Part shown: positions 21,778 to 39,386 of the stretch, one piece after another
Position numbering within the stretch: the stretch's first letter is position 1
How the letters are laid out: every line of letters begins with the position of its first letter
Source: Bacilli bacterium
Lineage (GTDB): Bacteria > Bacillota_I > Bacilli_A > RFN20 > DUOF01
Reading direction: 5' to 3'
Assembly: GCA_045118975.1 (NCBI GenBank)
Contig: JBGVCT010000016.1
Span: 28,199 to 92,198 of the forward strand
DNA: 64,000 nt
Program-made: the position numbers and the translations under genes
The notes under the pieces: generated by a model
Seen by the model: the letters and a program-made list of their open reading frames with translations, nothing else
Databases searched by the model: none
What the model was told of the DNA's origin: nothing

Positions 21778-21860
21778 GGGGCTATGGCGGAACTGGTAGA
21801 CGCGCCAGACTTAGAATCTGGTGAGAGATCGTGGGAGTTCGAGTCTCCCTAGCCCCACCA
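21778..21860 (+). tRNA. tRNA-Leu (anticodon TAG), class II with long variable arm. Its 3' end is the integration site of the island.
   Basis: Acceptor GGGGCTA/TAGCCCC, anticodon stem-loop CCAGA-CTTAGAA-TCTGG, extra arm, T-loop GGAGTTCGAGTCTCCC, CCA. Confidence 0.85.
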
Positions 21861-21861
21861 A
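21845..21861 (+). repeat. attL core: 17-bp direct repeat CTCCCTAGCCCCACCAA (3' end of tRNA-Leu)
   Basis: Identical 17-mer recurs at 35150-35166. Confidence 0.8.
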
Positions 21862-21910: not shown

Positions 21911-21975
21911 TCGTGAGAACACTTTGAGAACACTTTTTTAAAAAATGTTTTTTTGTGAGAACATTTTGGAATATT
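21911..21975 (+). repeat. cluster of GAGAACAYTTT direct repeats just inside attL (putative integrase/excisionase arm-type sites)
   Basis: GTGAGAACACTTTGAGAACACTTTTTT ... GTGAGAACATTTTGG. The same motif pair recurs at 35016-35047 just inside attR. Confidence 0.45.
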
Positions 21976-22069: not shown

Positions 22070-23167
22070 CTAGTTCATCATATCATCTAATCTATTTACT
22101 ATTTCTTGTTGGTTAGTTGGGAATAAGTGAGAATAAACATCTAATGTAGTAGAAACATCTTGGTGACCTAATCTTTCAGATATAAATATAGGTGTTATTC
22201 CCATATTAATAAGTAAACTTGCATGAGAGTGTCTGAAGTCATGAATTCTTATTTGTTTAACTCCAGCTTCTTTACATTTCTTGTTTTTATATCTTTCAAG
22301 AGATGTTTCACTTATTGGTTTGATACCACCAAAGACAAAATATTGTTCTGTTAAACCAGGGAAACTCTTTTCTTGCCATATTCTATATTCATTTAGTATC
22401 AATAATAGTTTTTGTGGTAAATCAATAGTTCTAACTCCTTTAGATGTCTTAGGTGCTGTCAGGGTGTATGTGGTGTTATTTTCTTTATGTTTTTGTGTTA
22501 TGGTTTTTGTTATTCTGATATATTTGCTAAATCTATTAATATCTTCCCATGTTAGAGCTAAAGCTTCGCCTTTTCTCATTCCTGTGTAGTAAAGCAAGTT
22601 GAACAAAGTGTATTGTAAAATATCACCTTCACAGCATTTGATAAAATTATTGAACTCTTCTGGAGTCCATATAAGCATTATATTTTTAACTACTGAAGTG
22701 TTTTTTATATATCCAACAGCTTTTACAGGGTTATAGTTGATGTTATAGAATTTATCGGCATATTCGTATATATCTTTAAGTAGCCCTGTGATTTTATTTA
22801 CTCTTCCTATTGTAACGTTAGAACGTTTAATTGCATTTTGCCAATTTAAAACGTCATTGTTTGTGATCCTTTGAGGATATTTTTCTCCAAAGTAACCACG
22901 AATGTATTTGTCGATAACAATTTTTTTGCCATATATGGTAGCTATTTTGTATTTGTTTTCTATAAATTTTAAATATTCGTCGCACAGTTGATTCATTGTA
23001 ACTCGTTTTAAAGATTCTAATTCATATTCTACTTGTGCTTCAGCTTGCTGTGCTTCTTTCTTTGTTTTGAAACCTCTTTTTGCAAGAAATACATTTTTAC
23101 CACTTGCATCTTTCACTCGTTTTCTGTAATACCATGTATTTCTTTTCTCATCTTTGTGGACTGACAT
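22070..23167 (-). CDS. int: site-specific tyrosine integrase
   Basis: C-terminal catalytic domain with R...HDFRHSHAS...LGHQDVSTTLDVYSHL (R-H-R-Y signature). Adjacent to the tRNA att site. Confidence 0.88.
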   Translation of the reverse strand: MSVHKDEKRNTWYYRKRVKDASGKNVFLAKRGFKTKKEAQQAEAQVEYELESLKRVTMNQLCDEYLKFIENKYKIATIYGKKIVIDKYIRGYFGEKYPQRITNNDVLNWQNAIKRSNVTIGRVNKITGLLKDIYEYADKFYNINYNPVKAVGYIKNTSVVKNIMLIWTPEEFNNFIKCCEGDILQYTLFNLLYYTGMRKGEALALTWEDINRFSKYIRITKTITQKHKENNTTYTLTAPKTSKGVRTIDLPQKLLLILNEYRIWQEKSFPGLTEQYFVFGGIKPISETSLERYKNKKCKEAGVKQIRIHDFRHSHASLLINMGITPIFISERLGHQDVSTTLDVYSHLFPTNQQEIVNRLDDMMN

Positions 23168-25610: not shown

Positions 25611-25639
25611 TTTACTTTTACTCAATATTATGCTATAAT
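25611..25639 (+). promoter_or_regulatory. candidate promoter of the three-gene operon
   Basis: -35 TTTACT, 17-nt spacer, -10 TATAAT at 25634-25639. Confidence 0.4.
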
Positions 25640-25657
25640 ATTGTCCGTTATAAGGTC

Positions 25658-28474
25658 GTGAGTGTAGTGAATGAAGAAAATGGAATTTATTTAGTAATCA
25701 TAATTGCTGTAATAATTCTTTTGGGGTGGGGTTATAGTCATTACAGAGAACTATATAATACTCCATTACCTACTCGTTCATCTAAAAGAAAGGTTAAATA
25801 TAATTCTAAATCTAGTGTGTATGAAAAATTGTTTATAGATGAATATAATGTTTATATAGATTTGTTAAATAATATTGATTACTATGAGAAATCTATAAGT
25901 GCCATGTCTAAAAAAATAAAAGGATGTTATTTTTTTGATAAAGAACTATATTATGCACTGAAAAAGAGAAGAGAAGAATACAAAGGAAAACACATTAACT
26001 ATTTAAATCGTTTGAAATCATTTTCGATAACTAATATGTTTGTTCCAATCGGAAGTGATCAATACAACATATTCATTAAAATGTATTTTCCAAATAATGC
26101 TAATTCAAACTTTTTCCTTCATGAATTTTTTAATAGGAAATATCATTATATTGAATACAATGGTGCTTATATTGTCTTTTATGAAGAAATGATTTTTCAC
26201 ATCAATACTGAGAAAAATACATTAAGATGTTATCGCTATGATGAAGTTAATCTTGACTATTATGATAGTTTTGTAAAGAGAGTATCTGTAAAGAAAAATG
26301 AAGAAATCATAGGAGAAACATGGCTTCATGCTAGAAAAGACGGAAGTCCTGATAGACGATATAGTCAAAATTATAGAATGTATAAAGTTTTGAAAGTAAA
26401 AGTGTATATGATGAATTATGAAACTGACTTGGCATTCTACAACAAGAAAGATTTACAAGAATTTAAATCATTTATTACTTCTATAAAAAGATTAGAAAAA
26501 AATTATCGACATGATACAGAAAGTAATAGAAATTCTAATTCCGATAAAATTGCTACTAACATTAAAGAAGAAAATATTATCTATCAGACTACGCTTTTTG
26601 ATGTAGATATAGAAAAAACTATAGATGAAGTAGATACTTCAAGTTTAATAATAGATGTTGAACCTATTTCTGAAACCACTTCAATGGTCAGTGATTTTAT
26701 AGAAAACATTATTTCTGAGCAAAAGTGCATTGAATGGTGTTTTCACGATGTTTTTGGATTGGGACAAGTACAAAATAATGAAAAAGAAATATTGACAATA
26801 GAATTTTTAGGAGGAACAACTAGAAAAATAGCTCAAACATATGCTGGGTTAAAACATGTTAAAAGTTCTGTTGGAAATAGCTGTATCATTAAAACTGAAA
26901 AATATGGTTATGGTGTGATTATCGAAAATAGGGAAGATGGAGTTATAATAGCAGAGTTTAAAGATAAAAAACATGTTATATCAGGTCCAAATAGTTCATA
27001 TGAGATTATAGATGTTGCAACATTAAGTGAATCAACTAAAGTACCTAATGAACAAATTATATCTGAAGCTGAAGCAAAAGAAGAAGTAAAAGAAAGTAAG
27101 CAAGTTACTATCGGAACTCTTGTCACACAAATGAAATATGGAAAAGGTGTTATATACAAAATAGAAGATGCTTCATATACTATTGTTTTTGATTCAGGAA
27201 TCGAAAAGAAAGTATCAAAAAGTTCATGCAGTGTATTGGAATACTTTGATAAAGAAAAATATGATTCAAAATTAGAAAAATTAAAAAGATTTGATTATGT
27301 ATCTATGAAAAATATAGGCTATGGAATTATAGTTGATTTTAACTCTGACACAATTACAATAGCCTGGAAAAATAAAACAGTTGAAAAATATAATATTCTA
27401 GTTACATGTTTACTTACTAGAGTTGTATCTGAAAGAAAAATAGAGTTGTTGAATTTAAGCATTGGCGATTATTTGTATAGTAAAAAATATGGCTATGGAA
27501 GAATTGTGGAGTTTATAGTAGATAAGATAAAACTCAAATTTTATGATGTTCCTAAAGAGATTCTTGTAGGAATGGAGTATCTGCAAATACCATCACTACA
27601 ACAACTTGAACAATTTAAATCAGAACTTAGACAGTCAAGCCTATCAAGAGATCTTACTTTTTTTACAAGATTGGATAAAAAATATTATTCGTATAAAGAA
27701 GCTCTTGACATATATACAGAATACTTTAGTTCTAAAAAATCAAAAGAAAAAAGTATGGTTATTAGCACATATAAAAAAGCAGGATTCAATCTGGTCAAAG
27801 ATTTCTTTGTATATTGCGGATATTTAAAACTAGAGGATTGTATTTATGAAGAAATTATTTCTACAAAAATTTATAAATATGATTATTCTATTGAGAGTGA
27901 TACATATAATTATATCTTAGATAAGATGTGTAAGTCATATTATTGTTTGAAGTATGATGATGGAGTGTATTTCACGTTTAGCAAGTATGGCGAATTCGGG
28001 TTTAATTTCTATGAACTTTTAAGTTTTATTGGAAAATTATTGGATTTTATAAAAGAACATAAATTTGTTTCAATTGTTTACTTGAAAAATAACTACGAAG
28101 GCTATTTGCCAGACGAAGGATTGTTACTGGCTATAATAAATTCTATTAGCATGATAAAATCGAGAAAAATGGGAAATTCATATATTTATCATTTGAAAGA
28201 CGGTCAAACAGTAAAGAAAGATTTGATGTATAAATTTATAGTAGAAGAATTTAATTGTATAAATAGTAAAAGTTGTGATATATATGATTTTATGGAGCAT
28301 TTAAATATAAAATACGAATTTGAATTTGAATATTCTACATTTGTTTTATTGTTAAATGAATTAGAAGATACTAATATTTATTATAGTGAAGATACAGAAA
28401 AAATATATAGCACTAAAGAAGAGTTTTATTTGGAGGTTTATGGAAATGGAAACGAAGAAAATAATAGCAATTAA
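25658..28474 (+). CDS. membrane-anchored 938-aa protein with four C-terminal Tudor-like KYGYG repeats (candidate defence component A). GTG start at 25658 or 25667.
   Basis: N-terminal TM helix IYLVIIIAVIILLGWGY. Repeats KYGYGVIIEN / KYGKGVIYKI / NIGYGIIVDF / KYGYGRIVEF spaced 60-75 aa. Stop overlaps the next gene. Confidence 0.5.
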   Translation: MSVVNEENGIYLVIIIAVIILLGWGYSHYRELYNTPLPTRSSKRKVKYNSKSSVYEKLFIDEYNVYIDLLNNIDYYEKSISAMSKKIKGCYFFDKELYYALKKRREEYKGKHINYLNRLKSFSITNMFVPIGSDQYNIFIKMYFPNNANSNFFLHEFFNRKYHYIEYNGAYIVFYEEMIFHINTEKNTLRCYRYDEVNLDYYDSFVKRVSVKKNEEIIGETWLHARKDGSPDRRYSQNYRMYKVLKVKVYMMNYETDLAFYNKKDLQEFKSFITSIKRLEKNYRHDTESNRNSNSDKIATNIKEENIIYQTTLFDVDIEKTIDEVDTSSLIIDVEPISETTSMVSDFIENIISEQKCIEWCFHDVFGLGQVQNNEKEILTIEFLGGTTRKIAQTYAGLKHVKSSVGNSCIIKTEKYGYGVIIENREDGVIIAEFKDKKHVISGPNSSYEIIDVATLSESTKVPNEQIISEAEAKEEVKESKQVTIGTLVTQMKYGKGVIYKIEDASYTIVFDSGIEKKVSKSSCSVLEYFDKEKYDSKLEKLKRFDYVSMKNIGYGIIVDFNSDTITIAWKNKTVEKYNILVTCLLTRVVSERKIELLNLSIGDYLYSKKYGYGRIVEFIVDKIKLKFYDVPKEILVGMEYLQIPSLQQLEQFKSELRQSSLSRDLTFFTRLDKKYYSYKEALDIYTEYFSSKKSKEKSMVISTYKKAGFNLVKDFFVYCGYLKLEDCIYEEIISTKIYKYDYSIESDTYNYILDKMCKSYYCLKYDDGVYFTFSKYGEFGFNFYELLSFIGKLLDFIKEHKFVSIVYLKNNYEGYLPDEGLLLAIINSISMIKSRKMGNSYIYHLKDGQTVKKDLMYKFIVEEFNCINSKSCDIYDFMEHLNIKYEFEFEYSTFVLLLNELEDTNIYYSEDTEKIYSTKEEFYLEVYGNGNEENNSN

Positions 28475-29654
28475 TACAGGAAGAAAAGAAAAAATGGTTA
28501 TAGGCGGGCACACTGTATTAGAAGATGTATATAAGGTCGATATTTCTACTTTATATTACAATGATGAAAATGGTAGAATAGCAACTTTTATTGCAGAATA
28601 TAAATCCAAAAGTGATGTTGCTATAAACGAGCTTTCATTTGATGAATATAATGAAACTATAATGCAATTTATCAAAGACTCTAGTAACAAAGATAAATAT
28701 AAAACTACTAAGGAAGATATAAAGAAAAACGGGCAATTGAGAATTGGTATCATTTTAGATGATGGTAGAGTAATTGACGGAAACAGACGTTTTACTTGTT
28801 TACGTGAATTATATAACGAAACCGGGGATGAAAGATATCAATATTTCGAATGCGTTATTTTAAAAGTACCTACAACTCTAAATGATAAAAAAATGATTAA
28901 ATCATTAGAATTGAAATATCAATTTGGAGAAGATGCTAGAGTAGATTATAATGCCATTGATAAATTAGTTGATGTATATAATCTTTTAGTGGGACCAAGT
29001 AGAATTTTTTCAATAAAAGAATATCGTGATCGTGTAAATAATCAAATCAAAGAAACTGATATAAAAAGAATGATGGTTAAAGCTGAAGTTATGTATGATT
29101 ATTTGGACTTTATAGGTATGAAAGAAAGATACGATATTGCTAGAGACTATAAATTAGATGGTCCAATTCAAGAAATAGCAGCACTAAAGTCTTCTTTATC
29201 AGACTTTGAGTGGAGCGAAGTAAGGCCAATTATGTATAAAGCCATGAAAGATGCAACTGGTGATAGAACAAGAGAAGTTCGTAGTCTAATAAAGGTATAT
29301 AAAAATAGTCCGTCAGAATTTGAAAAGATAAGAAATAATTTCTTAAATATCGAATTTAAGCAAGAACAAATCAAACATTCACAAGCAGAAGCAACCGAAG
29401 TTGTAACTAAAAAAGAAGAATTATCAGATTTAAAAGCAGAATATAAAGAACTTGTTAAGGATAGTATAGCTAAAACAGGAATAGATATGGCTAGAAAAAA
29501 ACAAAATGAGTTATTAAAAGGTGTAGTTAAGAAAATGTCTGAAATAGATAAAATATCGTTAAGACACTTACCTGAAGACTTGAAAAAAGAATTCATGCAA
29601 TATTTAAGTCAGTTAGAAATGGAAATTGCAATTTGTAAGAAGGAAATAGAATAA
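28440..29654 (+). CDS. ParB/DndB(DGQHR)-like N-terminal domain protein with DGNRR motif and a coiled-coil C-terminal half (candidate defence component B)
   Basis: VDISTLYYNDENGR ... LRIGIILDDGRVIDGNRRFTCLREL matches ParB-N/sulfiredoxin-fold boxes. Start ATG at 28440 with GGAGG RBS (track ORF starts upstream within the previous gene). Confidence 0.55.
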   Translation: MEMETKKIIAINTGRKEKMVIGGHTVLEDVYKVDISTLYYNDENGRIATFIAEYKSKSDVAINELSFDEYNETIMQFIKDSSNKDKYKTTKEDIKKNGQLRIGIILDDGRVIDGNRRFTCLRELYNETGDERYQYFECVILKVPTTLNDKKMIKSLELKYQFGEDARVDYNAIDKLVDVYNLLVGPSRIFSIKEYRDRVNNQIKETDIKRMMVKAEVMYDYLDFIGMKERYDIARDYKLDGPIQEIAALKSSLSDFEWSEVRPIMYKAMKDATGDRTREVRSLIKVYKNSPSEFEKIRNNFLNIEFKQEQIKHSQAEATEVVTKKEELSDLKAEYKELVKDSIAKTGIDMARKKQNELLKGVVKKMSEIDKISLRHLPEDLKKEFMQYLSQLEMEIAICKKEIE

Positions 29655-32227
29655 TGTTAGAGAAAGTTCATTTCAAATCATTATACAATTCTAAACAAGA
29701 TGATGTTATAAATGATTTTTATATTCCCGCATTATCTCAATCTAATGGTTATGACAGAATAAGCGCGTATTTTGATTCTAAAATTTTAAGAATGTATGCG
29801 GCGGGTCTAGAAAATATAAAAGATGGCGGGCGTGTTAGATTTATTTTTTCATGTGACCTTGATGAAGAAGATTATAACTTAATGAAGCAAGGATATGATT
29901 TAAGAGAAAAAATAAATTCAAAGTTACTTAATTCTATTTCAGATGAAGATGTTAATATTGATGTTTCAAATTTGGCGTATCTTATAGCTATTGGCGTAGT
30001 AGATATTAAGATTGCTTTTACTACTAAAGGAATTTTTCATGATAAATATGGGGTCTTTTCTGATTCTGAAGGAAACAAAGTATATTTTAGGGGATCGAAT
30101 AACGAAACTCTAGCTTCAATTATGTATAATTATGAAAGTTTTGAGACGTCTTGCTCATGGAATTGTGATGCGCGTGAAGAATTGAAAATTGACAATGCTG
30201 TTAGAACCTTTGAAGCTATATGGAATGATGAATTTCCAGAACTATATGTAATTCCGCTACCTGAATGTGTGAAAGAAAAACTTATAGGATATTCTTCTAA
30301 AGAAATATCTTCAATATATTATAAAAAAGAAAATTGTGCAATTTTTGATGTTGATGAACAATATCATTATACGTTGAATAATTTTTTAGATAACAAGTCG
30401 TTACTGGATACTCAAAGTAGTTTGTATAAGTATATTATACATCCTTATGTTGATTCTTACATTTCATATTCTGATACATATGTATTGAAGAATATTGGTT
30501 ATATGCAATTGAATAAACTGATTGTAGAAGTTAAAAAATATGCTTCACAATTAGGTTTTGATGTATACGTTGCTCCAAGACTAAGAAGGTTAATGTATGA
30601 AAGAGATATTTATATTGATAAGCGAAAAGACTTGGGAATTGCTATTAAACATAGAGACCCAAATTTAAATGAAGATTTCGAAAAATTTAAAAATATTATT
30701 AGTCAAGAGATGGTTAGAGAACTTCGTGAACCACAACAATGGGATGCTTATCATATAGCTAAAATGGTAAAATCTGCAAACTTTTCTGTTCCGGGAGCTG
30801 GTAAAACAACAATTGTATATGGTGCCTATGCCTATTTGGCAGCTATCAATAAAATTGATAAAATAGTTATGATTGGGCCTAAAAACTCATTTAGAGCATG
30901 GAAACAAGAATTTGTAGCAAACTTTGGTAATAAAAAAGAATTAAATGTATTAGATATACAAGCTAATAATGAACTTGACAAGAAATCTATGCTTAAGTAT
31001 CAATCAGATGATAAAAATTTAATTTTAGTTAATTATGAAAGCGTGCAAGGTGTGCTAGAAGAATTAACTTCGGCAATAAACGATAAAACATTGTTGGTAT
31101 TTGATGAAATTCATCGAATTAAATCTGTTAAGGGAAAAAGAGCAGAAGCTTGCCTTCGTTTAGCTAATAAAGCTAATTATAAAGTTGCTTTAACGGGAAC
31201 TCCATTACCAAATGGGTATGATGATATATATAACATGCTAAATATATTATTTTGCGATGAGTATAGTACATTTTTCGGATTTAAAGTTAACTATTTAAGA
31301 GAAGCTAGGTCTATATCTGCTTCACAAGATGCAATAAACAAGAAAATATTTCCGTTTTTTTGTAGAACTACGAAGAATGATTTACAAGTTCCGCCACCAT
31401 GCCAAGATGATACAGTTACTGGATATCTAGAAATGAATGATATTGAAGAAGAAATATTTTCTATAATTTATCGAGAATATTCATATAACACATTGATTTT
31501 ATATGTTCGTTTAACGCAGGCATCTTCTAATCCTGCATTATTGCTTAAATCAGTAGATAAAAATGATTTAGCTGATTTTGATGGGGATTGCGATGAAGAT
31601 GATTATGGTTTGTGGGATGAAATAGAGAAAGAAGATCATAAATTATCGAAAAAGGATTATGATTTTATCTTTAATAATATGACAACAAGAAAAATAGATA
31701 GATGTTGTGAGATAATTGAAGATAGGGTTCGCAATGGTGAAACTGTAGTAGCTTGGGGAATTTATATTGATAGTTTGAATTTGGTTTATGATAAATTGAC
31801 TTCAAAGGGAGTGAAAGCTGTAATAATAAGCGGAGCAACTCCTCAAGAAGTTCGCGATGAATATATTAATATGTTTTGTAATAAGGAAATAGATGTTTTG
31901 ATAACTAATCCACATACTTTAGCTGAGTCTGTTTCTTTGCATAAAACATGCCACTTTGCTATATATTTTGAGTATGATTTTAATTTAACTCATATGGTGC
32001 AATCTAGAGATAGAATTCACAGATTGGGGTTACCTGAAGGTCAAAAAACAGAATATTGTTATATGACGCTAAACTCAAAAACTAGTGAATATAATACTAT
32101 TGATGTAAAGATTTATGAAAGACTAAAAGAAAAAGAAAGAATAATGTTAGAGGCAGTTGAAAACAACGACATTGCTGTCGTTGAAGATGATTATATGGAT
32201 AATATTAATTTTATTTTACGTCGTTAA
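29654..32227 (+). CDS. PLD-like (HKD) nuclease domain fused to SNF2-family helicase (candidate defence component C)
   Basis: N-terminal HDKYGVFSD...GSNNET (HKD-like). SNF2 motifs PGAGKTT (I), LVFDEIHR (II), ALTGTPLPNGYDD (III), QSRDRIHRLG (VI). Start overlaps the upstream stop (TAATG). Confidence 0.75.
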   Translation: MLEKVHFKSLYNSKQDDVINDFYIPALSQSNGYDRISAYFDSKILRMYAAGLENIKDGGRVRFIFSCDLDEEDYNLMKQGYDLREKINSKLLNSISDEDVNIDVSNLAYLIAIGVVDIKIAFTTKGIFHDKYGVFSDSEGNKVYFRGSNNETLASIMYNYESFETSCSWNCDAREELKIDNAVRTFEAIWNDEFPELYVIPLPECVKEKLIGYSSKEISSIYYKKENCAIFDVDEQYHYTLNNFLDNKSLLDTQSSLYKYIIHPYVDSYISYSDTYVLKNIGYMQLNKLIVEVKKYASQLGFDVYVAPRLRRLMYERDIYIDKRKDLGIAIKHRDPNLNEDFEKFKNIISQEMVRELREPQQWDAYHIAKMVKSANFSVPGAGKTTIVYGAYAYLAAINKIDKIVMIGPKNSFRAWKQEFVANFGNKKELNVLDIQANNELDKKSMLKYQSDDKNLILVNYESVQGVLEELTSAINDKTLLVFDEIHRIKSVKGKRAEACLRLANKANYKVALTGTPLPNGYDDIYNMLNILFCDEYSTFFGFKVNYLREARSISASQDAINKKIFPFFCRTTKNDLQVPPPCQDDTVTGYLEMNDIEEEIFSIIYREYSYNTLILYVRLTQASSNPALLLKSVDKNDLADFDGDCDEDDYGLWDEIEKEDHKLSKKDYDFIFNNMTTRKIDRCCEIIEDRVRNGETVVAWGIYIDSLNLVYDKLTSKGVKAVIISGATPQEVRDEYINMFCNKEIDVLITNPHTLAESVSLHKTCHFAIYFEYDFNLTHMVQSRDRIHRLGLPEGQKTEYCYMTLNSKTSEYNTIDVKIYERLKEKERIMLEAVENNDIAVVEDDYMDNINFILRR

Positions 32228-33608
32228 TAATGGACAAAATAAATGATCTATCCAACCAGAAACAGTGTTTAGTATAATATGCTAAACCTGTTTTTTTATC
32301 TGGAACTGGTAAAATGTATCCACCACCACTTTTGTCTATACCAGTAGAGTCATGTGGTCTAACGTGACAAATGTGATTAAATGTACTTCCTGGGAAGTTA
32401 GTAAAATATTTTCCTGCTGAATATGAATTTACTATATCACCAGATTTGATAATTTTTTGAGTGTATTCCCATGTTTCTTTTACTTCTTTATCAAGTATTT
32501 CTAAAGGCATGTTCCAAAATTTAATTTTATCTAGATAGTAAACGCCATTTTTCTTCTTGAAAACAACAAACATATATTTAGTTGTATCAAATTTTTCTCT
32601 TAATTCAGAGGATTCCCACGTTTGCTCTGCAATATCTATATATTTAAATGTAGGAAAAGACATATGCTCTTTAATTTTGCCATTTTCTTCAATTCTAATT
32701 GTTTTTAATTCTAGATTTGCTTTTCTAAATTCATCGGTATTATTGATGTGACCGTTGAAACCTAACATTGCGCCAGTTAATACATTAAATCTGCTTTTTA
32801 GGGCAGGATTATTAGGTATGCCAAATTTTTCAAATAACTCGACTTCAGACATACCATAGTAAGGTTTTAATTTTTGATCCATAATTGCTTCAAATGTTGA
32901 ATTTTTAAGTTCTTCAAAAGAAACTATAGATTTACATTTTTCTCCAATAAGATTTTTATTTATTATTGTATTGATATATGAAGGCTTTAAGCAGTATGCT
33001 CTTTGTTTGGCTAATTTATCTGAAGCAGGTTGTTTTCTATAACTGCTTGCAGCATCTTTTCCTTTGGTGCAAGCGCCTAAATACATTGTGTCTGCTTCTG
33101 ACAAAGTATCAGCTAGTCCGTTATTAATTTTATCTACTATTAATTGCCAATCGTATTTTATTATTTCTAAATCTTCTTGAGAAAATGAATGAAGAATTGA
33201 ATCGATAAGATAAAAGTCGAAATCCTCTTTTTCTTCGTATAAATAAAACATTAATAATAGAGACATGTTTTTCTTCCAAAAAGTGCTATCTTCAAATGGG
33301 ATATTATATTCCAACATATAGTCAATGATATTAAGAACAAGTCTTTCTTTAGCTACATACTCATTATTTTTTAGTTTTTTTAGACCAGTTACTTTTAATT
33401 CTACGCCTAAATCAGCAAAATCAGCTTCAGGGCGAGAATTAGGAGGATAGTGAAAGACTCCTTCTTCAATAATTTGACCAATAACACCTTTATTGTTTTT
33501 TGCTAATGAGCGGTTATTAATATTGTATTCTGATATTCTATGACCACTTGTTTGCTTAGCAATTTCAAGTAGTTCGTTTGCTGAACTATATTTTGGTATT
33601 GTATTCAT
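32211..33608 (-). CDS. Sau3AI-like type II restriction endonuclease (tandem MutH/Sau3AI-fold domains, probable GATC specificity)
   Basis: Long collinear similarity to Sau3AI: GVELK..KKLKN..KERLVLNII, DYEIIKYDWQLI, LGACTKG, KQPASDKLAKQRAY and C-terminal ICHVRPH. Confidence 0.8.
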   Translation of the reverse strand: MNTIPKYSSANELLEIAKQTSGHRISEYNINNRSLAKNNKGVIGQIIEEGVFHYPPNSRPEADFADLGVELKVTGLKKLKNNEYVAKERLVLNIIDYMLEYNIPFEDSTFWKKNMSLLLMFYLYEEKEDFDFYLIDSILHSFSQEDLEIIKYDWQLIVDKINNGLADTLSEADTMYLGACTKGKDAASSYRKQPASDKLAKQRAYCLKPSYINTIINKNLIGEKCKSIVSFEELKNSTFEAIMDQKLKPYYGMSEVELFEKFGIPNNPALKSRFNVLTGAMLGFNGHINNTDEFRKANLELKTIRIEENGKIKEHMSFPTFKYIDIAEQTWESSELREKFDTTKYMFVVFKKKNGVYYLDKIKFWNMPLEILDKEVKETWEYTQKIIKSGDIVNSYSAGKYFTNFPGSTFNHICHVRPHDSTGIDKSGGGYILPVPDKKTGLAYYTKHCFWLDRSFILSIINDVK

Positions 33609-33746: not shown

Positions 33747-34991
33747 GTGAATAAAAGTGTAGTTGAATTATTTGCTGGTGTAGGTGGTTTTAGAGTAGGA
33801 CTTAATAAAATCAAAAATATAGATAACAATGGTAAAGCAGTAGAAAATGGTGATTGGGATTTTGTGTGGGCTAATCAATGGGAACCTGCAACAAGAACTC
33901 AAGATGCTTTTGATTGTTATATAAAAAGATTTGGTAAAGATAGTTGTTCTAATGAAGATATAACTACTGTTATTAAAGAAAACATTCCTGACCATACATT
34001 ATTAACTGGTGGATTCCCTTGCCAAGATTACTCTGTTGCTAGAACAAAATCTGGCGAAAAAGGAATTGAAGGTAAAAAAGGTGTTTTATGGTGGCAAATC
34101 AATGACATCTTATTAGCTAAAAAGCCTCCATTTGTTTTATTAGAAAATGTAGATAGACTAATAAAAGCTCCTGCTAGACAAAGAGGTAGAGATTTTGGAA
34201 TTATTTTAAGATGTTTAAATGATGCTGGTTACTGTGTTGAATGGAGAGTAATTAATGCTGCAGAATATGGACATCCTCAAAAGAGAAGAAGAACATATAT
34301 ATTTGCATATAACAAAAATACAAACTATTACACTCAACAATGTAATGTGACTCCAGAAGAAATCTTATTAAATAAAGGTATGTTTGCTAAATCATTTCCT
34401 GTATCTAAGTTAGCTACTAAAGTTAGCCAAACAGATTTAAGTTCTAATTCATATAATGATTTAGTAGATATGACAGCAGAATTTAAATTCAACTTTGAAA
34501 ATAGTGGATACTTATGTGATGGTATTGTATATACAGCTAAAACTCAACCTGTATTGGAAGATCCAATCACATTATTCCAAATTAGAGAACAAGACAGCGT
34601 TGATGCAAAATATCAATTAACGAAGAATATAGATAAGTTCATATATTTAAAAGGAAGTAAAAAAATACCTAGAGTATCTAAAACTGGTATGGAATATAAT
34701 TATTCTGAAGGCAAAATGTCTTTCCCAGATAGATTAGATATGCCAGGTAGAACAATGCTTACAAGTGAAGGAACAGTAAATAGAAGTTCTCATGTAATAA
34801 GCGACTTACAAACTGGTATGTTAAGAATTATTACTCCAAAAGAAGCAGAAAGACTTAACCAATTCCCAGATAACTGGACTAATTCAGGAATGACAGATTC
34901 AAAGAGATACTTCATGATGGGAAATGCATTAGTTTGTGGCGTAATTGAAAAAATTGGTAATCAATTAAATGAAATTATAGACTGCGAATAA
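33747..34991 (+). CDS. DNA (cytosine-5)-methyltransferase, cognate of the Sau3AI-like endonuclease
   Basis: Motif I ELFAGVGGF, motif IV GGFPCQDYS, motif VI LLENV, motif VIII QKRRR. Confidence 0.9.
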   Translation: MNKSVVELFAGVGGFRVGLNKIKNIDNNGKAVENGDWDFVWANQWEPATRTQDAFDCYIKRFGKDSCSNEDITTVIKENIPDHTLLTGGFPCQDYSVARTKSGEKGIEGKKGVLWWQINDILLAKKPPFVLLENVDRLIKAPARQRGRDFGIILRCLNDAGYCVEWRVINAAEYGHPQKRRRTYIFAYNKNTNYYTQQCNVTPEEILLNKGMFAKSFPVSKLATKVSQTDLSSNSYNDLVDMTAEFKFNFENSGYLCDGIVYTAKTQPVLEDPITLFQIREQDSVDAKYQLTKNIDKFIYLKGSKKIPRVSKTGMEYNYSEGKMSFPDRLDMPGRTMLTSEGTVNRSSHVISDLQTGMLRIITPKEAERLNQFPDNWTNSGMTDSKRYFMMGNALVCGVIEKIGNQLNEIIDCE

Positions 34992-35015: not shown

Positions 35016-35047
35016 GTGAGAACATTTTGAGAACACTTTTTGGAAAA
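35016..35047 (+). repeat. GAGAACAYTTT direct repeats just inside attR (match the 21911-21975 cluster)
   Basis: GTGAGAACATTTTGAGAACACTTTTTGG. Confidence 0.45.
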
Positions 35048-35149
35048 TTGATTCTAAGCAATACTAAATTGGTGCGAAAAATAGTGAAAAATGACTAAAA
35101 ATATGGTGTTTTTACTATAAAAACCGAGTGTTTGCATACAATCATATGC

Positions 35150-35166
35150 CTCCCTAGCCCCACCAA
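35150..35166 (+). repeat. attR core: second copy of CTCCCTAGCCCCACCAA
   Basis: Exact 17-mer match to the tRNA-Leu 3' end at 21845-21861, not part of a complete tRNA here. Confidence 0.8.
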
Positions 35167-35311: not shown

Positions 35312-36772
35312 GTGAAAAAAGTAAATTTATTTGATATTTCTAAACTGCATGATAACAAAGCTATCAGTGAGATATATGTAAGATATTTGGCTGACTTTCC
35401 AGATGAAAAACAATATAGACACGAAGAAATTAAATATATAAATGAATTATTGAAAATACTTAATATAGAAACTGAAGAAGTAGAAGATTTTTATTATGGT
35501 TATGAAGTTCCACAATTAAATAAGGAGTTTGATTTACTTAAGGTTACAAAAGAGTCTGTATTAAACATAGAACTAAAAGGAACCGTGGATGATGAGTTGA
35601 AAATACTAGAACAGTTGAAGAAAAACTTGCACTATTTAAAACTTCTAAATAGAAAATGCTATCAGTTCACCTATTTATCTAAAGAACAAAAATTGTTCAA
35701 ATTGAATAAAAACAAACTAGAGGTCATAGATTTTGATGAATTGTATGAAGTAATTAAATCAATATCTCAAGAGGACATTGACGAAGTTTACTTAGATGAA
35801 TATTATAAACCAAATGTTATTTTGGTTTCTCCACTTAATAATCCTAAAAGATTTATAAGTAATTCATACTTACTAACTGAAAATCAGGAAAATATAAAAA
35901 AAGAAATAATTAATGATTTAGAAATTAATAACAAGAAATATTACGCTATTCATGGGAATGCAGGAACTGGAAAAACATTACTACTATATGATATTGGGAA
36001 AACACTTTCTGAAAATAAAAATATTCTTCTTATCCATTCTGGTATTATTTGTAAAGGACATAGCTTTTTGAATAAAAATATGGAAAAATTTAAGATAATT
36101 TCAGCAAAAGATTTAAAGTACAAAGATTTAAGAAATGTTGATGTTTTGCTTGTTGACGAAGCTCACAGATTGTATAGAGAAGATTTAGAAAAAATAATAA
36201 AATGGGTAAATAAGAAAGTTTACTCTTGTATTTTTTCTTTTGATGGAAAGCAAGTCTTATCTTATAGTGAAGAACGAAGGCAAACAACAGAAAATATAAA
36301 ATTCATATGCAAAGGAAGATTACACAAATTAACAAATAAAATTAGAACAAATAAAGAAATTTCCTTATTTGTACAATGTTTATTTGATTTGAGTAAGTAT
36401 AGGGATGAATACAAATTTGCTAACGTTAAAATTGTTTATGAGCCAGACAAACTTAAAGCGGTTGAAAGGGCAAAGAATGCTTTGGGTTACACATATATAT
36501 CATATACAGGTTCTTTTTATAATCATGATATAGACTACCAATTTTCTCAACATAATACTCACAATGTCATTGGTCAAGAATTCGATAGGGTATGTATGAT
36601 CATGGGAAATGAATTTTATTATAAAAACAATAAATTAAAAGGATATACTCATCCCACTCCGGACTATATTTATACTCAATTGTTATATCAAGGATTAACG
36701 AGAGCTCAAACTGGTGTGCTTTTAATAATAACTGATATTGAGCTTTTGAAAAGCATATTAAACCTGATTTAG
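35312..36772 (+). CDS. NERD/PD-(D/E)xK-like N-terminal domain fused to an SF1 (DUF2075-like) P-loop ATPase/helicase. Nhi-like candidate defence nuclease-helicase.
   Basis: N-terminal FDLLKV...VLNIELKG (D...E-x-K). Walker A HGNAGTGKT, Walker B LLVDEAHRL, motif VI-like GLTRAQTGVLLI. GTG start with GGTGGTGA RBS and a TATAAT at 35287. Confidence 0.55.
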   Translation: MKKVNLFDISKLHDNKAISEIYVRYLADFPDEKQYRHEEIKYINELLKILNIETEEVEDFYYGYEVPQLNKEFDLLKVTKESVLNIELKGTVDDELKILEQLKKNLHYLKLLNRKCYQFTYLSKEQKLFKLNKNKLEVIDFDELYEVIKSISQEDIDEVYLDEYYKPNVILVSPLNNPKRFISNSYLLTENQENIKKEIINDLEINNKKYYAIHGNAGTGKTLLLYDIGKTLSENKNILLIHSGIICKGHSFLNKNMEKFKIISAKDLKYKDLRNVDVLLVDEAHRLYREDLEKIIKWVNKKVYSCIFSFDGKQVLSYSEERRQTTENIKFICKGRLHKLTNKIRTNKEISLFVQCLFDLSKYRDEYKFANVKIVYEPDKLKAVERAKNALGYTYISYTGSFYNHDIDYQFSQHNTHNVIGQEFDRVCMIMGNEFYYKNNKLKGYTHPTPDYIYTQLLYQGLTRAQTGVLLIITDIELLKSILNLI

Positions 36773-36821: not shown

Positions 36822-38066
36822 ATGAAGGTATCCAGCGCAATAAGTGAAGTATTAAACGTATTGAAAATCCCTAATGAAGAAAGAAGACTACTTCATGATA
36901 TTTATATAATTAAATATAGTGATAATATTAAATCGGAAAAAGATTATGATAAATTAAGAAATAATCCAGAATATCATCTTGTTGGTAGAGAAAAAATACG
37001 AAAGTATAACTCGGCATTTGAGCACTTATATAATTCTTTAGGTCTTGAGGTGGCAGGACTATCATCAAATGAATTTAGAAAGAAAATTGAGCAATTACTA
37101 TTTTTTGACAATTTTACTGAGGAAAAAATTAGAGAAAAATTGAAAAGTATACCTCTGCAACACTATCATTGTGTAGATAAAATATATGGGATAAACATAG
37201 AAAATGATATGCTAGTATTAGGAAAATACACATTATTAAATCCTATTTATATATCTCATTACTTAAAAGAAAAAATAGAAGCAAAAAACCATCACTATAT
37301 AGATGATTTTATAGATACAGAAGAAAATGCAGATAAATTCATATACGTTATTTGTGATTATTCAGGTAAAGGCGTTGATTTACCAAGGGAAAAATTTGAT
37401 ATGGATTTAGCGACCTTTATAAATATTCTTAGATATATGATTCGAATAAAAAATTCAAGACTTAACATAGATTTAAGTGCATATAATCCAAGGCAGCTAA
37501 ATAAATTTCAATTTTCTGATGAGGGTAGTATCTATAGTAGTTTTAAGATAGATAGAAAAGATGTGACAATTACATTGTATGAAGACTATATTACAGATAT
37601 TGATTTGGGTTTTAATAAAATTTGGGAAATAACTAATAAAGATAACAAAAATGATTTTGAAAATAGAATTATGCTTGCTATAGATTGGGTTGGACAGTCT
37701 CTTCAAGAAAATAATGATGATATGTCAATATGTAAACTTGCTTTTGCATTTGAGTCATTATTTCATGTGCAAAAAGATAATATGATAAGCCCAAGTATTC
37801 AATATAGTATTGCAGAGAGTGTCGCTTTCCTAATTGGAAAAACGCCTGAAGAAAGGATAAATATAAAAAAAAGATTTAAGGAATTTTATTCTCATAGATC
37901 TTCAATTGTTCATGGTGGAAGTTCTAAAAAGAAGAGTGATTATGACTATTTCTTGTCATTATTAATAGGGTCCATTTCGTATTTATTGACTGATGAAAAT
38001 TTTGCGAATTGTAAAAACGGAGAAGATATATCCAATATTCTTGATATGAACTTTAAGTTTAAATAA
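36822..38066 (+). CDS. hypothetical protein with C-terminal HEPN-like helical domain (Rx4HGG motif)
   Basis: C-terminal helices ending in FYSHRSSIVHGGSS (R-x4-H, the HEPN RNase signature). Co-directional, 50 nt after the upstream gene. Confidence 0.4.
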   Translation: MKVSSAISEVLNVLKIPNEERRLLHDIYIIKYSDNIKSEKDYDKLRNNPEYHLVGREKIRKYNSAFEHLYNSLGLEVAGLSSNEFRKKIEQLLFFDNFTEEKIREKLKSIPLQHYHCVDKIYGINIENDMLVLGKYTLLNPIYISHYLKEKIEAKNHHYIDDFIDTEENADKFIYVICDYSGKGVDLPREKFDMDLATFINILRYMIRIKNSRLNIDLSAYNPRQLNKFQFSDEGSIYSSFKIDRKDVTITLYEDYITDIDLGFNKIWEITNKDNKNDFENRIMLAIDWVGQSLQENNDDMSICKLAFAFESLFHVQKDNMISPSIQYSIAESVAFLIGKTPEERINIKKRFKEFYSHRSSIVHGGSSKKKSDYDYFLSLLIGSISYLLTDENFANCKNGEDISNILDMNFKFK

Positions 38067-38540: not shown

Positions 38541-39386
38541 CTAAATCATAAAATATATTTTTAAATTTTCTTTTATCTTTTGAATTTCCTCTTCAGTTAA
38601 TTCAATAGTTAGTTGGGTGTTTTTATCAATCAAAGGTTTTACAAAACGTTTAATACTGATTCGTTTTCCGTCATTTAATTTAATAATATTTGTTTTTCCG
38701 TCAATAATTTTTTTAATATTATAATAGTAATTCTTTTTTGGGATTTTGCTAGTTATTGGAAAAACAAAATATGAACTATCTTCTTTATTTTCTGTATTAA
38801 CGTGTTCCTTCCAAACTAAGACAGGTCTTAATTTGTTTATTTCAGAACCTACGTTATTTCCAATATAAGCAAAGTAAATTCTATATTGTACAATATCAAG
38901 TTTAGATTTGTATTTTGAAAATTTAATATCTTCTTTTGTAATGGCCCATTCTAGATATTTAAGCATTTGCTCTGTTAGTGTTATATCATTCAATTTTCCA
39001 TCAATGAGATTGCTGCCTATGGTTGTATTACACTTTGTACCAAAGTCTATCAATAATTTATCTACTATTGATTTGGTGACTAAATCAAATTCATATGGTG
39101 TAGCTATTACTTCTTTTCCTTTTAAATGAAGTTGACGTTGCATTTGATGTTTGTTTATTTTTTCATATGTTCCAAGTATGTAAACTTTATTTAAATTGTT
39201 TATAGTAATATATTTAGAAGTTGATTCAGGTTCAACTAATTTTGCCATTAAGACAAAAGGTTTAACATCAGTATCTCCAAGATAAATTCCTATTTGTTCT
39301 TCACCATTTTCGTCTAGATATGAATATATATTTTTAGGAAATAATTGTACTTTCATTTTTGTCACCTCTAATATTAAGTATATCAT
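38541..39386 (-). CDS. MazF/PemK-like toxin domain (C-terminal ~120 aa) fused to an unknown ~160-aa N-terminal domain
   Basis: C-terminal region IYFAYIGNNVGSEINKLRPVLVW...YFVFPITSK...IIKLNDGKRISIKRF aligns with the MazF G-SEQ-G-RP-VV and downstream motifs. Confidence 0.5.
   Translation of the reverse strand: MIYLILEVTKMKVQLFPKNIYSYLDENGEEQIGIYLGDTDVKPFVLMAKLVEPESTSKYITINNLNKVYILGTYEKINKHQMQRQLHLKGKEVIATPYEFDLVTKSIVDKLLIDFGTKCNTTIGSNLIDGKLNDITLTEQMLKYLEWAITKEDIKFSKYKSKLDIVQYRIYFAYIGNNVGSEINKLRPVLVWKEHVNTENKEDSSYFVFPITSKIPKKNYYYNIKKIIDGKTNIIKLNDGKRISIKRFVKPLIDKNTQLTIELTEEEIQKIKENLKIYFMI

Follow-up and report, generated by a model that had tools for sequence, protein, structure and literature searches.

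What kind of system is encoded by three overlapping genes, A, B and C, carried on an integrated island of a Bacilli bacterium, and what is their relation to the restriction-modification (R-M) genes that follow them? The trio lies at positions 25611-32227 of the 64,000-nt stretch that was analysed (contig JBGVCT010000016.1), the whole of which is referred to here as the window. An initial annotation had taken the trio to be a previously undescribed defence or modification-sensing system. Our analysis indicates that A-B-C is probably an anti-phage operon of the AbiR type, which together with the adjacent endonuclease and C5 cytosine methylase genes makes up one five-gene unit, the sole defence cargo of the island. 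Published accounts of AbiR describe this same architecture, the matching folds and a dependence on a GATC-type C5 methylase, and the system can thus no longer be called undescribed; its earlier description as a co-transcribed, nucleic-acid-targeting defence module linked to DNA modification stands. The five genes are located as follows.

25667..28474, + strand: gene A, 935 amino acids (aa) from a GTG at 25667, in an open reading frame (ORF) that opens at 25658 (938 aa); protein in the AbiRa position
28446..29654, + strand: gene B, 402 aa; AbiRb-type protein of the ParB/sulfiredoxin (Srx) fold, with a long, helical C-terminal half
29654..32227, + strand: gene C, 857 aa; AbiRc-type protein with an N-terminal single-HKD nuclease domain of the phospholipase D (PLD) family and an SNF2 ATPase
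32211..33608, - strand: gene R, Sau3AI/LlaKR2I-type restriction endonuclease (GATC), convergent with C; NCBIfam restrict_Sau3AI 9.6e-153, Protein Data Bank (PDB) entry 4pxg 8e-61
33747..34991, + strand: gene M, C5 cytosine DNA methyltransferase; Pfam DNA_methylase 3e-59, TIGR00675; predicted self-protection component

The three ORFs of the trio, all on the + strand and overlapping, were recovered at the positions first assigned to them. Because the exact recorded proteins begin at GTG 25667 (A, 935 aa) and ATG 28446 (B, 402 aa), the overlap between A and B is 29 nt and not the 35 nt given before; the candidate starts of B are 28386, 28440 and 28446, and a GGAGG at 28432-28436 fits the start at 28446. 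The junction of B and C is TAATG, in agreement with the earlier reading, and C shares 17 nt with the convergent Sau3AI-like gene.

Features shared with AbiR

Protection of lactococci by AbiR was reportedly demonstrated between 2000 and 2006. The AbiR system of Lactococcus lactis plasmid pKR223 consists of three genes. AbiRa is similar to sigma-70 factors, AbiRb can be superimposed on PDB 5K5D, and AbiRc is similar to the ATP-dependent endonuclease 7CLG in its N-terminus and to SNF2/INO80 proteins in its C-terminus; a complex of AbiRa, AbiRb and AbiRc has been predicted (PMC13064643). AbiR needs the LlaKR2I methylase, is toxic without it, and lowers phage DNA replication (PMC13064643), and the methylase shields the host from AbiR's own action (PMC2661086). 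LlaKR2I, Sau3AI and MutH are related and all cleave at GATC (PMC4471560), and AbiR is often associated with R-M systems (Makarova et al. 2013, PMC3632139).

The window fits AbiR on every feature tested except the sigma-70-like first protein. Both are three-gene operons with a large first protein, a ParB-fold second protein (for which 5K5D is the best PDB match given in the published review) and a third protein combining an N-terminal endonuclease/PLD-like part with a C-terminal SNF2/INO80-like ATPase. In the window, the genes for the large, the ParB-like and the nuclease-SNF2 protein lie on one strand and overlap, as expected of co-transcribed genes. Both also adjoin a GATC-cleaving R-M system (LlaKR2I being related to Sau3AI); the methylase is needed for host protection in AbiR, and its protective role and site in the window are predicted. 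In contrast, neither a Sigma70 match nor a match to the C-terminal domain of the RNA polymerase alpha subunit (alpha-CTD) was found in gene A. In the window's A, the place of the sigma-70-like region is taken by a putative membrane anchor, an uncharacterised domain and five Tudor-like repeats; only its C-terminal winged-helix domain is held in common with the sigma-like members. Because A lacks the sigma-70-like region, the window system is filed as an AbiR variant and not as a plain member. Furthermore, AbiR is on a plasmid, whereas the window system is on a low-GC chromosomal island.

Conservation of the operon across 80 loci

The part of A that is found throughout the family is its C-terminal domain, here called A_C.

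27755..28447, + strand: A_C, family-wide C-terminal domain of A (aa ~700-930, ~225 aa), a tandem winged-helix array

Homologues of B, ~400 aa in length, fall into more than 3000 clusters. When genomes were scanned at one per species, 331 B-encoding stretches were obtained, and 80 loci with 10-kb flanks were taken for the locus counts reported here. A C-like SNF2 gene directly follows B in 76 of the 80 loci, and A_C, searched for by iterating a hidden Markov model (HMM) seeded with the window's A_C, is located at the extreme C-terminus of the protein encoded just upstream of B in 67 of them, sometimes in two paralogues. The gene order is thus kept. The genes that neighbour C in these loci encode A_C proteins, ParB-fold proteins and Sau3AI modules. 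The B-C loci come from Bacillota, Mollicutes, Actinomycetota, Bacteroidota, Melainabacteria, Alphaproteobacteria, Spirochaetia, Endomicrobia and one archaeon, and the family is present on at least 66 plasmids, 52 of them from Enterococcus. No PADLOC model matches A or B of the family, including its Lactobacillales members, and for this reason the trio looks unknown to standard annotation; a PADLOC match to AbiR was likewise not obtained with the Lactobacillales members, and Pfam and NCBIfam name neither protein.

Several variants were observed among these loci. A trio with a PLD-less C is frequent on plasmids of Enterococcus faecalis and related species (L082, L083 and 52 Enterococcus plasmid records), where there is no adjacent methylase; it consists of a ~864-aa 'sigma factor-like HTH protein' with A_C, B, and a 620-aa SNF2 protein, annotated as hypothetical or as helicase only. 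In Collinsella (L050, L059, L061, L067-L072), a 1127-aa protein with T5orf172 and a ResIII helicase is accompanied by a 437-514-aa A_C protein, B and a 651-aa PLD-less C, and L050 and L059 have a further ~980-aa protein upstream that bears a second A_C domain. On the L. lactis plasmid pIBB109_AgSa_3 (L081, 4005-12019), homologues of B and of a PLD-less C immediately follow a type III Mod-Res pair and an A_C protein is absent, and therefore the ParB-SNF2 pair can couple to another class of R-M system. The locus of a Spiroplasma sp. (L003) has fragmented ORFs under translation table 11 (B of 112 aa, C in four pieces), which could be due to decay or to the genetic code of Mollicutes, in which UGA encodes tryptophan. 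Upstream of A-B-C of the nearest divergent relative are genes for an AAA_15/AAA_21 ATPase and a 913-aa UvrD-like helicase, and the locus is part of a stretch that resembles a defence island (L085, 703-7589).

Association with Sau3AI-type R-M genes

The Sau3AI-like R-M pair had initially been treated as a neighbour of the trio. Close homologues of the window's methylase (E<1e-40) are located within 10 kb in 38 of the 80 loci, and a Sau3AI-derived module is present in all 38. A full Sau3AI-type endonuclease gene was found in 22 loci, often in the convergent position that it has in the window (L006, L012, L030, L031, L034-37, L086/87), and L086/87 repeat the five-gene layout of the window, with the order A-B-C-(R)-M and the convergent overlap kept. 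In 10 loci, where the gene order is methylase-reader-B-C, the place of A is taken by a stand-alone protein of 224-283 aa that corresponds to the C-terminal effector domain of Sau3AI; one of 227 aa matches PDB 2reu at 4e-19. The same effector domain is fused to A_C in ~517-aa proteins of Bacillaceae, and in L024 the whole of Sau3AI and A_C are joined in one 1311-aa protein. The pair, recurring as it does in 38 of the 80 loci and sometimes fused to A_C, is a recurrent and sometimes physically joined partner of the trio, not a mere neighbour. Furthermore, the methylase is associated with the nuclease domain of C: it is present in 36 of 58 loci with a PLD-bearing C and in 2 of 22 loci with a PLD-less one (Fisher p = 1.5e-5), a few of the PLD-less loci being truncated by contig ends.

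The first protein

The features of A that lie N-terminal to A_C are listed below.

25685..25735, + strand: N-terminal hydrophobic helix of A (aa 10-26, IYLVIIIAVIILLGWGY), putative membrane anchor; 19-residue Kyte-Doolittle windows above 1.8
25775..26647, + strand: N-terminal domain of A (aa ~40-330), the core of which (aa ~165-280) is an uncharacterised module
26723..27601, + strand: five tandem Tudor/SH3-like repeats of A (aa ~356-648) with the motif [FYI]GxG, connected to Tudor domains by weak Pfam and PDB-profile links

Judged by sequence identity, A is the fastest-evolving subunit: identity to the nearest divergent relative, L086, is 28% for A, and 53%, 57%, 63% and 61% for B, C, R and M, respectively. 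A is also a near-orphan, with 41 homologues at E<=1e-3 among 1.84 billion representatives; these were obtained by an exhaustive search, which was needed because a word-indexed homologue search with A returned A alone. Nevertheless, the claim that gene A has no described counterpart is not upheld, since its C-terminal 225 aa are the domain that ends sigma-factor-like proteins of the AbiRa type, and only the N-terminal two thirds of A are unusual. For instance, Enterococcus 'sigma factor-like' proteins carry A_C at E 9e-50. Among 47 A-family proteins, the parts N-terminal to A_C contain Sigma70_r4 in 27, RNA_pol_A_CTD in 20 and MutH/Sau3AI in 6, and the window's A has none of them. A_C has zero invariant residues across the family; its AlphaFold2 model, with a predicted local distance difference test score (pLDDT) of 88, is a tandem winged-helix array like those of the SelB C-terminus, ESCRT-II Vps36 and the MarR, PadR and ArsR regulators.

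The single N-terminal helix seen in the initial annotation was supported by the Kyte-Doolittle scan as a putative membrane anchor, and an N-terminal hydrophobic helix is also present in the A protein of L086. The repeats, earlier counted as four, number five, with the additional one at aa ~358-405. Their likeness to Tudor domains, which had been proposed from a resemblance to the C-terminal modules of UvrD/PcrA helicases, is weakly supported. Pfam Tudor_1_RapA matched A with an E value of 0.0077, below its cutoff, and CarD_TRCF_RID and PcrA_UvrD_tudor matched homologues of A. A profile of 33 repeats gave seven matches in the PDB, of which five were C-terminal constructs of UvrD or PcrA, each individually non-significant (E 0.12-0.49), and a profile from the window's five repeats alone gave nothing significant in the PDB. 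The putative membrane anchor and the Tudor-like repeats of A are the new elements of the system, and neither would be expected in a complex that targets DNA. We also considered a cryptic Sau3AI/MutH-like reader in A and rejected it, as hhalign gave the N-terminal domain and A_C probabilities of 0.1-0.3%, compared with 98% for the positive control.

Two side observations concern the modules of A. The core of the N-terminal domain (aa ~165-280, window 26150-26500) recurs in unrelated proteins (P0139-P0161), where it follows DUF4236 or stands beside TerB, FtsK-gamma, DnaJ, leucine-rich repeat (LRR) or SH3 domains. In alignment A5, PADLOC models matched A-family proteins as PglW (15 of 47) and MzaA (14 of 47); these matches probably stem from shared alpha-CTD and winged-helix modules, which hints that a DNA-reader cassette is reused across BREX type 2, Mza and AbiR-type systems.

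The second and third proteins

B has the ParB/Srx fold, as the initial annotation had recognised. Sequence matches to ddrB-ParB (3e-4) and the ParB model TIGR03764 (3e-5) were all below cutoff. The DGNRR motif of B (aa 111-115; 28776..28790, + strand) is the counterpart of the GERR arginine box of ParB, and G112, N113, R114 and R115 are invariant in 34 diverse homologues of B, as is the motif NDxNGRIAT, which reads NDENGRIAT in the window (28560-28586). The DGNRR box had been considered closest to those of DndB and DpdB; however, none of the Dnd or Dpd models of PADLOC, Pfam and NCBIfam matched B, and this part of the earlier interpretation is not supported.

The earlier reading of C, a single HKD motif with the spacing HxK(x)5D joined to a full SNF2 helicase with motifs I, II, III and VI, was confirmed, and the positions of the motifs are as follows.

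30038..30109, + strand: HKD motif of C, HDKYGVFSD...GSNNET (H129, K131, D137, G147-T152)
30791..32029, + strand: SNF2 ATPase core of C; motif I PGAGKT (30791), motif II DEIH (31103), motif III TGTP (31193), motif VI QSRDRIHRLG (32000)

The N-terminal PLD/HKD domain matches PADLOC PbeA at 2e-67 over aa 2-220, and the SNF2 core matches Pfam SNF2-rel_dom (3.5e-22) and Helicase_C, with PDB sequence matches to ISWI, Snf2, INO80 and SsoRad54. Among 57 PLD-bearing homologues, 53-57 retain H129, K131, D137 and GSxNET, and SNF2 motifs I, II, III and VI are retained in 72-73 of 73 homologues of C, so that at the level of sequence both the nuclease and the ATPase motifs are intact and conserved.

Proposed mechanism

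C would be the effector, in which an SNF2 double-strand-DNA translocase is fused to a single HKD nuclease domain, so as to translocate along DNA and cut it. To build an active site, two copies of such a single HKD domain would have to come together, as they do in Nuc and BfiI. B is probably a nucleotide-binding partner whose long helical half loads C on DNA or gates it; because of its fold and its invariant arginine box, we infer that B may serve as a nucleotide-gated loader or switch. A would be an exchangeable reader or sensor, in which the constant A_C could tie the protein to B/C or to DNA, while the variable N-terminus, here the putative membrane anchor, the unknown domain and the five Tudor-like repeats, would supply recognition. 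The methylase would mark GATC sites of the host and thereby keep A-B-C off self DNA, as has been shown experimentally for AbiR by its toxicity without the methylase. Unmarked DNA, whether incoming or fresh phage DNA that outruns the methylase, would be attacked, and phage DNA replication would be blocked. Because the window's A has no Sau3AI-like reader, the A-B-C of this variant may act on DNA bound or cut by the separate Sau3AI-like enzyme, or may read methylation through an unrecognised domain.

This offers a testable model for AbiR, which was found to be protective more than 20 years ago and the mechanism of which is still listed as unknown, or unclear, in a 2026 review of lactococcal Abi systems (PMC13064643): a type II recognition module would be recruited to steer an ATP-driven nuclease, with GATC cytosine methylation as the self mark. 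The family extends over many phyla and combines a constant core of the ParB-fold and SNF2 proteins with a modular reader in the first subunit, and its nuclease-bearing forms travel with a Sau3AI-type methylase, which provides annotators with a rule for recognising AbiR-type systems. In the literature that we searched, we found no such account of the family as a whole, with its unvarying engine, its exchangeable readers and its parts taken from Sau3AI. A more far-reaching version of the model is that AbiR-type systems are a distinct, widespread class of methylation-gated, ATP-dependent restriction machines, with a ParB-fold and SNF2-HKD engine and swappable readers docking via the tandem winged-helix domain, and that the window encodes an undescribed membrane-tethered version whose PcrA/UvrD-type Tudor repeats bind RNA polymerase. 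As a whole, we regard this version as rather unlikely. If it were true, restriction would be coupled to the transcription or the entry of foreign DNA, and the five repeats would bind the very polymerase of which most relatives contain pieces (alpha-CTD, sigma region 4).

Several points weigh against the assignment to AbiR and the methylation-gated model built on it. The assignment draws on architecture, fold matches and the methylase context, and the pKR223 proteins entered the comparison by their description only. As judged from the sequence, the window's A is without the sigma-70-like and alpha-CTD part typical of AbiRa. There is also no detectable Sau3AI-like reader in it, so that the reading of GATC methylation by this variant is the weak point of the model. 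In 38 of the 80 loci no methylase was found within 10 kb, and therefore methylation gating is not universal, unless the methylase is encoded elsewhere in those genomes. Furthermore, AbiR has been classed as an abortive infection system, which suggests that modified phage is still inhibited and that a simple R-M logic may fall short. Finally, nucleotide binding by B, the contacts of A_C and HKD dimerisation are predictions of the model.

Alternative explanations

A serious alternative, although in our judgement an unlikely one, is that the operon is an AbiR-type system of the abortive, sensor-triggered kind, in which A senses a phage protein or hijacked transcription machinery and frees B/C for indiscriminate degradation or clamping of DNA, the methylase only damping basal self-damage and not discriminating self from non-self. 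The fast evolution of A (28% identity to its counterpart in the nearest relative, compared with 53-63% for B, C, R and M) would suit a sensor, as would the modules found in the A family, which are Tudor-like repeats in the window, BspA-type LRRs in P0122 and P0135, and alpha-CTD and sigma region 4 in most members. The 38 loci without a nearby methylase, and the historical classification of AbiR as abortive infection with reduced phage DNA replication, point in the same direction. On the other hand, the replacement of A by the Sau3AI effector domain, or the fusion of this domain to A_C, is indicative of recognition of a DNA mark and not of protein sensing, the methylase tracks the nuclease domain, and the trigger that this explanation requires is not known.

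It is much less likely that the trio and the Sau3AI-like R-M pair are independent systems that merely share a defence island, the trio being new and unnamed. Defence genes do cluster, and an AbiO/Nhi-like gene is located just past the island; in addition, A and B are unnamed by PADLOC, Pfam and NCBIfam, and the trio occurs without the R-M pair in 38 of the 80 loci. However, independent systems would not be expected to co-occur in 38 of 80 loci over distant phyla, to be linked by fusions of Sau3AI parts to A_C, or to keep an identical five-gene layout at 53-63% identity. The five genes are moreover the only defence cargo between the att sites, and an architecture-identical system has a published dependence on its methylase.

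It is scarcely credible that the operon is a degenerate or variant PbeABCD/Dnd, DISARM or Dpd system with its partners elsewhere in the genome: the PLD domain of C matches PADLOC PbeA as given above, its helicase weakly matches ZorD, DpdE and DrmD models, and ParB-fold proteins are known in Dnd (DndB) and Dpd (DpdB), but no PbeC, PbeD, DndACDE, DrmA/DrmB (DUF1998), DpdA or TGT gene was found in the window region or beside B-C in the 80 loci, B matches neither the DndB nor the DpdB model, the NCBIfam scores for DrmD (26.5 bits against a cutoff of 610), DpdE and ZorD are far under their cutoffs, and the conserved partners are A_C proteins and Sau3AI-type modules.

Relation to other defence systems

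Pbe, DISARM, Dpd, Dnd, Zorya and BREX-related type 2 systems were each considered and rejected, as their defining partners are absent. The initial annotation had already set the operon apart from DISARM, Dpd and Dnd, and PADLOC, Pfam and NCBIfam models for the partners of these systems indeed gave no matches. In the case of DISARM, which has DrmC PLD as a separate gene beside a core of DrmA and DrmB (DUF1998), no match to DrmA or DrmB was found. In the case of Dpd and Dnd, which combine a DGQHR-type DndB/DpdB with DpdA/TGT or DndACDE, no such modification genes are present in the island.

C is similar to the effector of PbeABCD (CxC-DndE) systems, since it has the HKD and superfamily 2 (SF2) helicase architecture of PbeA and matches PbeA models, and some systems with a CxC ABC ATPase and DndE also carry cytosine methylases (PMC10853773). 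However, the CxC-type ABC ATPase (PbeC), the DndE-like PbeD and the small disordered PbeB were not found, A and B match no PADLOC Pbe or Dnd model, C is accompanied instead by a ParB-fold protein and a winged-helix adaptor, and the helicase core is of the SNF2 type. The type IV enzyme SauUSI (PDB 7CLG), which is the fold match cited for the AbiRc N-terminus, likewise has an N-terminal PLD-family nuclease fused to a DNA-translocating SF2 ATPase. In contrast to the present system, SauUSI combines these parts and a C-terminal reader in one polypeptide and is directed against modified cytosine, whereas here the reader is on separate subunits and the methylase appears to protect, not to sensitise.

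In type I and type III ATP-dependent R-M systems and in BREX-related type 2 systems with an HKD and SNF2 effector, self DNA is marked by a methylase, and DNA that lacks the mark is acted on by a motor-nuclease once a separate specificity module has recognised it (PMC12839542). The same logic is proposed here, and one family member (L081) is located behind a type III Mod-Res pair. The AbiR-type systems differ in that they have taken their recognition part from a type II enzyme (the Sau3AI effector domain) or use other DNA-binding modules, and in that a ParB-fold subunit is obligatory, with no HsdS, Mod target-recognition domain, DUF499 or DUF3780. The central region of PglW of BREX type 2, an alpha-CTD-like domain followed by three winged-helix modules (PMC12839542), resembles the A proteins; however, PglW is a kinase with an inactive STAND domain, while the A proteins are without an enzymatic domain, and the window's A is without the alpha-CTD.

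The island and its surroundings

The island is 13.3 kb long and is inserted at tRNA-Leu (21778-21860), with which a cluster of five tRNA genes ends. That the genes belong to an integrated island, as had been assumed, was confirmed, since the 3' end of tRNA-Leu is found as an exact 17-nt repeat at its two limits and at no other place in the window.

21845..21861, + strand: attL, 3' end of tRNA-Leu, CTCCCTAGCCCCACCAA, left limit of the island; exact 17-nt repeat
35150..35166, + strand: attR, second 17-nt copy of the tRNA-Leu 3' end, right limit of the island
22070..23167, - strand: tyrosine integrase of the island; Pfam Phage_integrase 2.6e-23, Arm-DNA-bind_4, SAM_3
25611..25639, + strand: promoter-like site TTTACT-17-TATAAT with an upstream TG, a consensus match only

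Between the att copies are the integrase gene, a helix-turn-helix (HTH) gene, a Lin1244_N gene, A, B, C, and the genes for the Sau3AI-like endonuclease and the C5 methylase. The motif of the promoter proposed upstream of A is present; however, the region contains 68 promoter-like sites, where 76.9 were expected from shuffled sequences, and because such sites are no commoner than in the shuffles, this one is treated as a consensus match only.

An imperfect 38-nt direct repeat (GTGAGAACAYTTTGAGAACACTTTTT..., 87% identical) at 21913-21950 and 35016-35053 is located just inside either end of the island and is distinct from the 17-nt att core; its copies possibly serve as arm sites for the integrase. 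GATC is about two-fold under-represented, with 77 sites observed in the window where 151 are expected from base composition, and 14 observed in the island where 34 are expected, and this scarcity would fit long exposure to GATC-directed restriction. Immediately beyond attR is a gene for an AbiO/Nhi-like helicase-nuclease (35312-36772, + strand; PADLOC AbiO 1e-128, Nhi 8e-126), and therefore this tRNA-Leu site has also acquired a further defence gene. It is followed by an ORF of 414 aa (36822-38066, + strand), which has no match in Pfam, NCBIfam or PADLOC, and then by a gene for a 281-aa protein (38541-39386, - strand), in which a 165-aa N-terminal extension precedes a C-terminal half similar to PemK/MazF-like toxin domains (2e-7).

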